Below are positions 9,001-12,000 of a DNA stretch of 35,239 bases, piece by piece. The position numbers are program-made. This DNA comes from a virus (taxonomy: Duplodnaviria; Heunggongvirae; Uroviricota; Caudoviricetes). Location of the stretch: positions 1-35,239 of the IMG/VR virus record IMGVR_UViG_2718218139_000010; one strand, given 5' to 3'. Position 1 is the stretch's first letter; the number at the start of each line of letters is the position of its first letter.

Positions 9001-12000
9001 CGGGTCTCCCGATCGCGACCAGTCACGTACATCCCCAGCAGATCATCCAGCCCTCCGCCGTCAATCCCCACCGTCACCACATCAGCACGCTGCAGAATAT
9101 CGTCCAGACTGATGCGCCTGCCCTACTGCTCCCAGAAATCCGCCCCTGCCCAGCGGTCAGAACGCAGGGCAAGACCAATTTCCACATTGGCGTGTTTTGA
9201 CATGAAACCGCGGAAAGTCTCTTCCCCGGCTTCCCGGGCTTTACGATACTCCCGGTACAGAAAGGCCTCATCCACCGAATAACCGAGATTCGGGTTAACC
9301 ATGGCGAGGTTTTCCATCAGCAGGTGCTCACCGCTCTCCACCATTTCAGGAGGATGCTCAAAAATCACCGGCAGAAAATGCGGATCATGAATTTTACCGT
9401 CGCGCACATCCCGGGCGTACTGCAGTTTCTGCCTGAACACCCCGGCAGGCGGCTCATTTGACTGGGTGGTTGTGTACACCACAAACCCTTCCGGACGTGA
9501 AGCCAGCCCGCCAATGGCTTCACGTAACATGTCCTCCGCCTTGTACTGCTTGCCAAACAGCCACAGTTCATCAATCAGCGTCCCCACGGACTTAATACCG
9601 GACACCGTATTCGGATCGGCTGCCACCACCTTCAGGGTGGTGTCCGTCACCCTGTGGGTGATGGTCCGGATATGTGTCTGCACCTGACAGAGGTCATCCA
9701 GATCATCGTCCCGTCGTACCATATCCCTGGCAGGGTTGAAGGCGTTGGCTGCCACCTCCACTGTCGGGGCCAGAATCGTGTAACCCGCCGCCTGCCGCCA
9801 GTTCAGTAACAGTGCAGTCATCATGATCCCCGCGGCCAGCGTGGACTTCGAGTTTTTCTTGGGGATAAGGATAAACACTTCCTTGATATGGCGAACACCG
9901 GTCTGCGCATCGTAGGAGCCAAACAGGGCCGCCACCAGGTCAAACACCCACGGTGCACAGGACTCCCCGAATGTCGGGCTACCCGGTGCATCCACAATTC
10001 GCAGTTGTTTAAAAATCGCCAGTGCATGTGCAGCCTGGTCCGGATAAATCGGAGCCGGAATAATCGACAGCCCCTTTTTCAGGCGCTCTGCCCAGTCCGG
10101 ACATGCCGTGCTCCATACAGGTATCATCCGCTTTCCTCATTCTGGTTATTCACCACCAGTCGGGGAGGTGGTGGCACCGCAAAACGGTTAGCCGCTTTTT
10201 TCGCGGCATCACCTTTTGCCGATTTTTTACCGGCATCGCCTTTTTTATGGTGTGTGAACTGCGCCAGTCGCCAGGCCGCATCCAGTGCCAGTTTCGGGTC
10301 AATTATCAGGTTTTCCACCAGGATCTGCCCCATAGCTTTCACCGGATCGGGAAGACCATCCTCCATATATTCAATACCATGAGATATCACCGCGGGCGGA
10401 GGCATCTCCGGATTGTTTTCGTCCGGCTGTGGTATTGCAGCCACCTCACGGCGACGGGGTTTATCCTCCTGCTCTGATTTTTTCTGCCGGTAAACAGGAA
10501 CCTCATCCACCTCCACCGTTTCGCACTGTTTACGGGCTATAAACGCGAGCACCTCCGGATCTTTTGCCAGCTGCGAGCCTTTAACCCTGGCGGTCTTCGC
10601 CGAATAACCGGCGGCAATGGCTGACGCTGTTTTGTTTTTCCCGGACATGAGCGCCAGCGCAAATTTTCGTTTTTGCGTTGTCAGCACAGCCTCCTCCCGG
10701 GTCCATAACGCACTCAGCCGGGTATGGTTCAGCCCATTTTTCCCGGCGTCTCATGCCGCAAATGTTAACTGCTGCCTGGTTAACATTTGCTGAAAAAGCC
10801 AGTTAACATTTTTTTCGCACAACAAACTGAATAATAAAGATAAAAACCGCAAAAATGCCCGGGCAGCCAGTTAACATGTTAACTGGCCTGAAACAGGAAT
10901 TTTTTCTCTGCATGAGACGGGGGGCGGTGTCCGGGGCGATCGTTTTTTTCGCCGGATGATCCCCCCCCGGGGCGGGTCACAGTCCGATGATATCGTCTGC
11001 CCTGCCATGACCTCCGGACACCTCCGGCAGCGTCGGGTCCGGCATACCACTCGCCGTTTCACTGACTGACTTCTGGCGATGGCATTCGGTACAGAGCGTC
11101 CAGAGATTCGTCTCCTCATTACCACCACCGAACTGAAGTGCAATTCGGTGATCGAGTTCACTGTCACAGAGGTCAACCACACGACCACAGAGACAGCACT
11201 GCCCGGCATCCCTGAGCCAGATACGGCGCTTGAGGGAAACCCGGGCACTACCACTGACCCGACGCTGTTCACCCTTCAGGACATTCACCCGCCGGGTGTT
11301 CAGAGTTTTGATTCTGCCCGGTAACGTACGAAGCACAGCCATGTAAAATCCTCGCCATATAACTTGTCACCAGAGGAAAGAAAATGTCATCGAAAAACCG
11401 GACCCGCAGAACAACAACCCGCAACATCCGATTTCCAAACCAGATGATTGAACAAATTAACATCGCTCTTGACCAGAAAGGTTCAGAAAATTTTTCTGCG
11501 TGGGTCATTGAATCTTGCCGCCGGGAGCTGGCAGCAGACATAAAATATGCCCGTCAGTTGACTATAAAAAAGAATGATACACAGTATACTCTGCGATGGC
11601 TGTTCATATAACTATTTCTTTATATTGCTGAATTTATAAAAAATCACAGACATTAGCTGTATTAATTCCGAATTGAAATAATCAGCCATATAGAATAAAA
11701 ATAAAGCATAACAATAATAATCTTCTACCCAATCAGTACATTACTGCTGTGACTCCAACACGGCAGTTTTTTTATTGAACAGATTCCAGTTTCTTCCACC
11801 ATCGCACCGGATGGGCGACCATGAGGGGAGAACGCCGCGCTCCGTTTACGCGGTAAACCCCGGTGTGTATCGTTTTTGATTATCCCCGCACACTCTCGCA
11901 GAGGAGTCTCCCTGTCGGGCTGCGGTCTCTGTTAATGCAGGAATACGGCGACAATACCGCGCATGGATAATAAGGTCGCTCAACACACTGGCTGTAATTC

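Follow-up and report, generated by a model that had tools for sequence, protein, structure and literature searches.

The large terminase locus

The window, that is, the whole 35,239-nucleotide stretch of DNA that was analysed, carries on its minus strand (10127..8466) an HK97-type large terminase gene (terL), whose translation comprises 554 codons including the terminal stop and is interrupted by one internal stop at codon 335 (Table 1). Past this TAG the frame stays open down to the normal terL stop, and the gene contains no second lesion. A mechanical list of open reading frames breaks terL in two, 9123..10127 (334 aa) and 8466..9080 (204 aa, with a GTG start), and the automatic gene calls of the protein collection likewise treat it as two genes. 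The first possible restart is the GTG at 9080..9078, and 14 sense codons (9122..9081) lie between it and the TAG. Translation confirmed what a first, sequence-only reading had claimed, namely that the ATPase and nuclease ORFs share one frame and are kept apart by the TAG at 9123-9125 and these 14 codons. The same reading would have had to be abandoned if the two halves belonged to unrelated proteins; they are in fact colinear and gapless against a single 553-aa TerL, at 97-98% protein identity.

At the domain level, the Pfam TerL_ATPase profile covers residues 63-237 of the upstream ORF, the PKKxxKST stretch of this domain is invariant across homologues, and the TerL_nuclease match sits on the in-frame downstream part. 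The stop falls in a short variable stretch, flanked by the conserved blocks LRSDRWAGADFWE and VGIDGGGLDDLLG, and precedes the nuclease domain. In the alignment to the HK97 large terminase (PDB 6Z6D) it lands just before the VGIDGGG strand, the first of the nuclease domain, and normal termination would therefore yield an ATPase-only protein devoid of the whole nuclease domain. Judged from the sequence, codons 1-334 would be the only product to expect from normal termination, and the downstream half would stay untranslated unless a ribosome reads through or restarts. HK97-type large terminases carry both domains in one uninterrupted polypeptide; in the window this polypeptide is interrupted at codon 335, which makes the locus a pseudogene of the family rather than a working member.

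Table 1. Features of the packaging region and its surroundings, with positions in the window
Feature	Position	Strand	Remarks
HNH endonuclease gene upstream of terS, 121 aa	10977..11342	-	same length in orthologous loci
terS (small terminase), intact, 187 aa	10124..10687	-	Pfam Terminase_2
terL codons 1-334, ATPase domain and most of the linker	9126..10127	-	Pfam PF03354, E 5.6e-12
Premature TAG (plus-strand CTA)	9123..9125	-	terL codon 335; ancestral codon CAG (Gln)
terL codons 336-553 and normal TAA, nuclease domain	8466..9122	-	Pfam PF20441, E 2e-7
Protease-capsid fusion gene, 5' remnant of about 22 codons (~67 nt)	8336..8402	-	blastn against ESDR8 and phage 2851
IS66-family element, ISEc23-like, 2532 bp, tnpA/tnpB/tnpC	5804..8335	+	at the junction of the head-tail deletion
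C-terminal endolysin fragment	12993..13328	-	Phage_lysozyme profile positions 34-125 only
IS3-family element, 1265 bp, splits the endolysin gene	13340..14604	+	ORFs of 100 aa and 272 aa

In phage 2851 and in E. coli prophages the gene order is HNH - terS - terL - protease/capsid (645 aa) - portal - connectors - tail - tail fibre. The window retains HNH and terS upstream of terL; of the capsid gene only about 22 codons remain, and there is no portal gene. Searches against NCBIfam gave no match for terS, HNH or the small left-hand ORFs, and Pfam was used in its place. The exact TerS protein is present in 2758 blocks of the collection, and at all nine listed places in other genomes it is followed by an intact 553-aa TerL. 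When the same exact TerS protein was employed to search the source genome for a second, intact terL, the only locus returned for that genome was the one in the window.

Orthologues and origin of the amber codon

The codon comparison with orthologous terminases, which the sequence-only reading had proposed as a check on its claim that a single nonsense change splits one gene, bore the claim out. Codon 335 is CAG (Gln) in 15/15 orthologues checked, all with an uninterrupted 553-aa gene; this set comprises three E. coli loci, SCU-104, phage JLK-2012, phage 2851 and nine further genomes, and takes in prophages of E. coli as well as Stx phages that have been isolated. One C>T transition, at nucleotide 1003 of the gene, therefore accounts for the lesion. 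The 1662-nt terL was found in 1254 of 5426 complete E. coli genomes, with a top identity of 96.3%, and among the matches listed every E. coli copy bears the annotation of a single 'terminase large subunit'. In related E. coli genomes this type of terminase is present in up to seven copies, and the loci of strains ESDR8, 95NR1 and PRO_A-1443 were inspected as examples. In the phage collection the closest relatives are JLK-2012, Stx1a-converting phages and phage 2851. The residue at position 335 is Ala in the more distant homologues of Stenotrophomonas and Xanthomonas phages.

Divergence along the gene gives an indication of the age of the change. Against ESDR8, terL codons 1-334 show 7 synonymous and 0 non-synonymous differences, that is, not one amino-acid change, and the last 218 codons are far more diverged (dS about 0.37, dN/dS 0.05); against the orthologues, dN/dS is about 0.05 in both halves. 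The window terL differs from all nine compared orthologues at 16 positions, 12 of them synonymous, 3 conservative (A454T, V487I and V550F, all private to the window) and 1 nonsense, and the residues introduced by A454T and V487I are also found in more distant homologues. This low dN/dS, together with private changes that are mostly synonymous, argues against a long decay and indicates that the nuclease half has not drifted. On these substitution patterns, the nonsense mutation is young relative to the divergence among terL alleles.

The window terL is also a recombinant mosaic, in which the first ~1000 nt resemble ESDR8 and the last ~660 nt (nt ~1003-1662) are closest to the SCU-104 type. The switch falls within the conserved stretch that holds the TAG, and its position there is probably a coincidence.

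The allele in other isolates

Whether the base is genuine had been left by the sequence-only reading to be settled from further sequence data. Five independent SRA assemblies (L006-L010) all read ...GAGCAGTAGGGC..., that is, the same TAG. They differ from the window at 0-4 other SNP positions, in the length of a homopolymer and by one 10-nt deletion; since they differ elsewhere, they represent different isolates rather than the same data, and a sequencing error is ruled out. A second record of >1 Mb, retrieved by an exact-protein look-up of the 334-aa product, also carries the TAG. The same look-up placed the window in NCBI assembly GCA_003015325.1 (contig PVMG01000001.1), where the retrieved locus matches it at 100% identity over 20,127 nt. 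Beyond these carriers, a 40-mer spanning the TAG found no exact match in the GTDB species representatives (one genome per species), and a megablast of 81 nt around it against complete E. coli genomes returned nothing above 97.5% and no identical copy; no more than 5-9 contigs are on record with the exact 334-aa product. The TAG allele, absent from the GTDB representatives and from the complete E. coli genomes, is therefore rare. Since it is shared by isolates with differences at several further positions, it is not entirely new either.

Several further features of the carriers were observed. The SNPs among the five assemblies (window 9381-10585) are not compatible with a tree, and positions 10415 and 10585 show all four combinations, which points either to gene conversion, with paralogous copies of the prophage as partners, or to short-read contigs that are chimeric. 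The five contigs all terminate at the same positions, window 9055 and 11144; an explanation of these identical Logan contig ends as repeats shared with paralogues was set aside, because it is not safe to infer this from assembly behaviour. A C/G homopolymer at 10960, between HNH and terS, is one or two bases longer in all five short-read assemblies, a difference that may reflect an error in the assembly of the window. SRR10026525 (L010) has a 10-nt deletion within the 3' end of the HNH gene (window 11010-11019). The SNPs of the carriers within the ATPase ORF are all synonymous; a reading of this pattern as selection was rejected, as retrieval by exact protein excludes non-synonymous variants.

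Decay of the prophage

The amber codon lies in a prophage that has suffered extensive losses. By comparison with phage 2851 about 19.3 kb are missing, from codon ~23 of the capsid gene through lom, a segment that holds the capsid, portal, connector and tail genes. The ISEc23-like element found at this place has the typical GTAAGCG terminal repeats, and the 8-mers that flank it differ (ctttcgca versus tgatcacc). As there is no target-site duplication, the element marks a deletion or rearrangement junction and not a simple insertion. On its far side lies a 683-nt ydfU-like segment that is 86.7% identical to window 20656-21338, of which it is a diverged copy, followed by tail-fibre remnants; the junction region as a whole spans 4923-8402. 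An IS3-family element interrupts the endolysin gene; a second copy of this element (32814-34078) is 100% identical and in direct orientation, so that recombination between the two could delete the intervening 18 kb. An NleG-family effector gene (window 3663-4253, minus strand) shows a 1-nt deletion at about 3911 with respect to the 99.9%-identical strain B1_2, which shifts the frame and leaves a 125-aa ORF instead of 196 aa, and is either a true pseudogene or the product of an assembly error. With respect to the same strain, the gene for the N-terminal part of the tail fibre has a ~1.2-kb internal deletion at 4535-4537 (24538-25757 of the B1_2 locus, L003, are missing).

Other genes are apparently whole, including nleC, the gene for a HECT-type E3 effector, Q, RusA, the O/P-type replication genes, the cI-like repressor, an ExoVIII-type exonuclease and that part of the integrase which the window covers. 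Given that terS, HNH and the 3' half of terL are intact, the packaging module is less decayed than the rest of the prophage. The element is a heavily decayed effector island of prophage origin, in which the amber codon is one of at least five inactivating lesions. This qualifies the view that the TAG marks the prophage as packaging-defective: the prophage is indeed defective, but the TAG is not the cause, since the 19.3-kb head-tail deletion and the IS-split endolysin gene are present as well. The amber codon would accordingly not be the lesion that decides whether particles can be made.

Small RNA genes were also recognized with Rfam in this element. AgvB (anti-GcvB, plus strand) and STnc100 (minus strand) stand back to back at 17840-18095, in a slot between the Q antiterminator and a DUF1737/SASA gene that corresponds to the position of stx and the tRNA genes in phage 2851; the window is devoid of an stx gene. 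A match to the DicF antisense sRNA (55.9 bits, 29411-29462) lies in the early-left region near dicB-type genes, as these are named in related records.

Interpretation of the amber codon

The terL allele very probably represents a recent, lineage-restricted loss of function, that is, the plain pseudogenisation of terL in a lambdoid, effector-carrying E. coli prophage. The scheme starts from what is observed directly, namely the mutation, its reality, the intact state of the orthologues checked and the other lesions. The C>T transition would have turned Gln335 (CAG) into amber (TAG) in the HK97-type large terminase gene, and normal termination would then give a 334-aa protein with the ATPase and without the nuclease domain, incapable of cos cleavage and packaging. 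TerL requires both domains in one chain, and it is on this account that we infer the truncated protein to be inactive. The prophage would already have lost, or have been losing at the same time, all else needed for particles, an order of lesions that we also infer; selection would then no longer maintain terL and the nonsense allele could persist as a pseudogene. Nonsense decay of a prophage gene is an already known kind of event.

Among the other readings, the one that fares best, though still very improbable, is that an amber suppressor tRNA or low-level reading of the codon by near-cognate tRNA-Gln keeps TerL full-length and functional. The variability of position 335 (Gln or Ala) means that almost any inserted residue would probably be tolerated, and the downstream half of terL bears no further lesion. 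In E. coli, near-cognate reading of UAG is a low-level process that mostly inserts Gln; read-through of this kind would regenerate the ancestral TerL, at only a small fraction of the normal yield. Nevertheless, ARAGORN found zero tRNA genes in the window, and Rfam detected in it no tRNA or recoding RNA family and only the sRNAs STnc100, AgvB and DicF. Furthermore, nleC, which lies in the same element, ends in a TAG that is its true stop, and the allele is rare and limited to a lineage instead of being a conserved feature. With capsid, portal and tail genes absent, the terminase would have nothing of its own to fill. The search for a suppressor tRNA covered the window. Even with a suppressor encoded on the host chromosome, no particles would be produced, since the prophage has lost its head and tail genes. 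The proposal of the sequence-only reading that full-length TerL might be made in an amber-suppressing background consequently finds no support, given a window without tRNA genes, an nleC that ends in TAG and the small number of carriers.

Somewhat less probable still is a functional split, in which translation restarts at the GTG at 9080 to give two cooperating proteins, or the retention of an ATPase-only fragment to hinder the packaging of related phages, whether co-resident or superinfecting. In keeping with such a new role, terS, HNH and both terL halves are otherwise intact, the restart product would have its start shortly before the catalytic VGIDGGG strand, and the multiple copies of this terminase type in related genomes (up to 7) would offer targets for interference. 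What speaks against the split is that no Shine-Dalgarno-like sequence is found at a proper distance upstream of the GTG at 9080 and that all other family members consist of one chain. As for a new role, the allele is too rare for conservation to reveal selection, and the apparent excess of synonymous changes among carriers is an artefact of the exact-protein look-up.

Two more specific versions of a retained activity can be formulated, and it is very unlikely that either applies. In the first, the ATPase-only TerL, kept along with intact terS and HNH, would act as a dominant-negative protein against Stx-type phages, its targets being the phages that use the same terminase. In the second, low-level Gln read-through would restore wild-type TerL and so allow the DNA of the remnant to be cos-cut and packaged elsewhere, in capsids supplied by a co-resident prophage.

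A sequencing or assembly error, with C as the real base and terL intact, is scarcely credible: the disagreement over the homopolymer at 10960 between the window and all five short-read assemblies makes some homopolymer errors possible, yet the TAG is a substitution and not a homopolymer indel, and it is identical in the five SRA assemblies and in the second record of >1 Mb. Finally, a phage-type reassignment of TAG to Gln in late genes, as in some gut phages, is excluded in spite of the stop being TAG, the ancestral residue Gln and the gene a late one, since stop-codon-recoded phages are recognized by many in-frame TAGs in late genes together with a suppressor tRNA, and here the element as a whole contains just one in-frame TAG, the window encodes no suppressor tRNA, TAG serves as a genuine stop and close relatives have CAG.

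Comparison with known systems

The pseudogenised terL belongs with the terminases of Stx-converting and other lambdoid phages (2851, JLK-2012 and Stx1a-converting phages), to which the likeness amounts to 97-98% protein identity across all 553 positions and extends, on the upstream side, to the shared order HNH - terS - terL - protease/capsid. These phages have an uninterrupted terL with CAG at 335, followed by capsid, portal and tail genes, whereas the window has a TAG and has lost the downstream module by deletion. Phage 2851 has three tRNA genes between Q and stx, in contrast to the window, where ARAGORN detected none. The HK97 large terminase (6Z6D) is the sole solved structure detectable by sequence (E 2e-10) and aligns over both the ATPase and the nuclease domain; being distant and of low identity, it serves only to locate the stop with respect to the boundary between the domains.

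Defective lambdoid prophages are well documented in EHEC O157 Sakai, where only one of the 18 prophages is free of frameshifts, deletions and IS insertions (PMC2669165). Prophage Sp4 of this strain has a broken terminase gene, yet its DNA is packaged all the same, through the terminase that a sister prophage with an almost identical cos provides (Asadulghani et al. 2009, PMC2669165). Like the window prophage, Sp1-Sp18 are lambdoid prophages with multiple lesions; those of Sakai are co-resident in one genome (PMC2669165). The lesion of Sp4 is an IS in the small-subunit gene, while that of the window is a point nonsense mutation in the large-subunit gene of a prophage whose head-tail module is absent. 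By analogy with Sakai, help in trans is conceivable for the window prophage, because related E. coli genomes hold several copies of the same terminase type.

Implications

The locus should be annotated as one terL pseudogene with an internal stop and not as two genes, and the TAG may be used as a lineage marker for the few isolates that share it. The effector-carrying prophage, with nleC, a HECT-type E3 effector and an NleG remnant, is unable to make particles of its own and would be mobile only with the help of other prophages.
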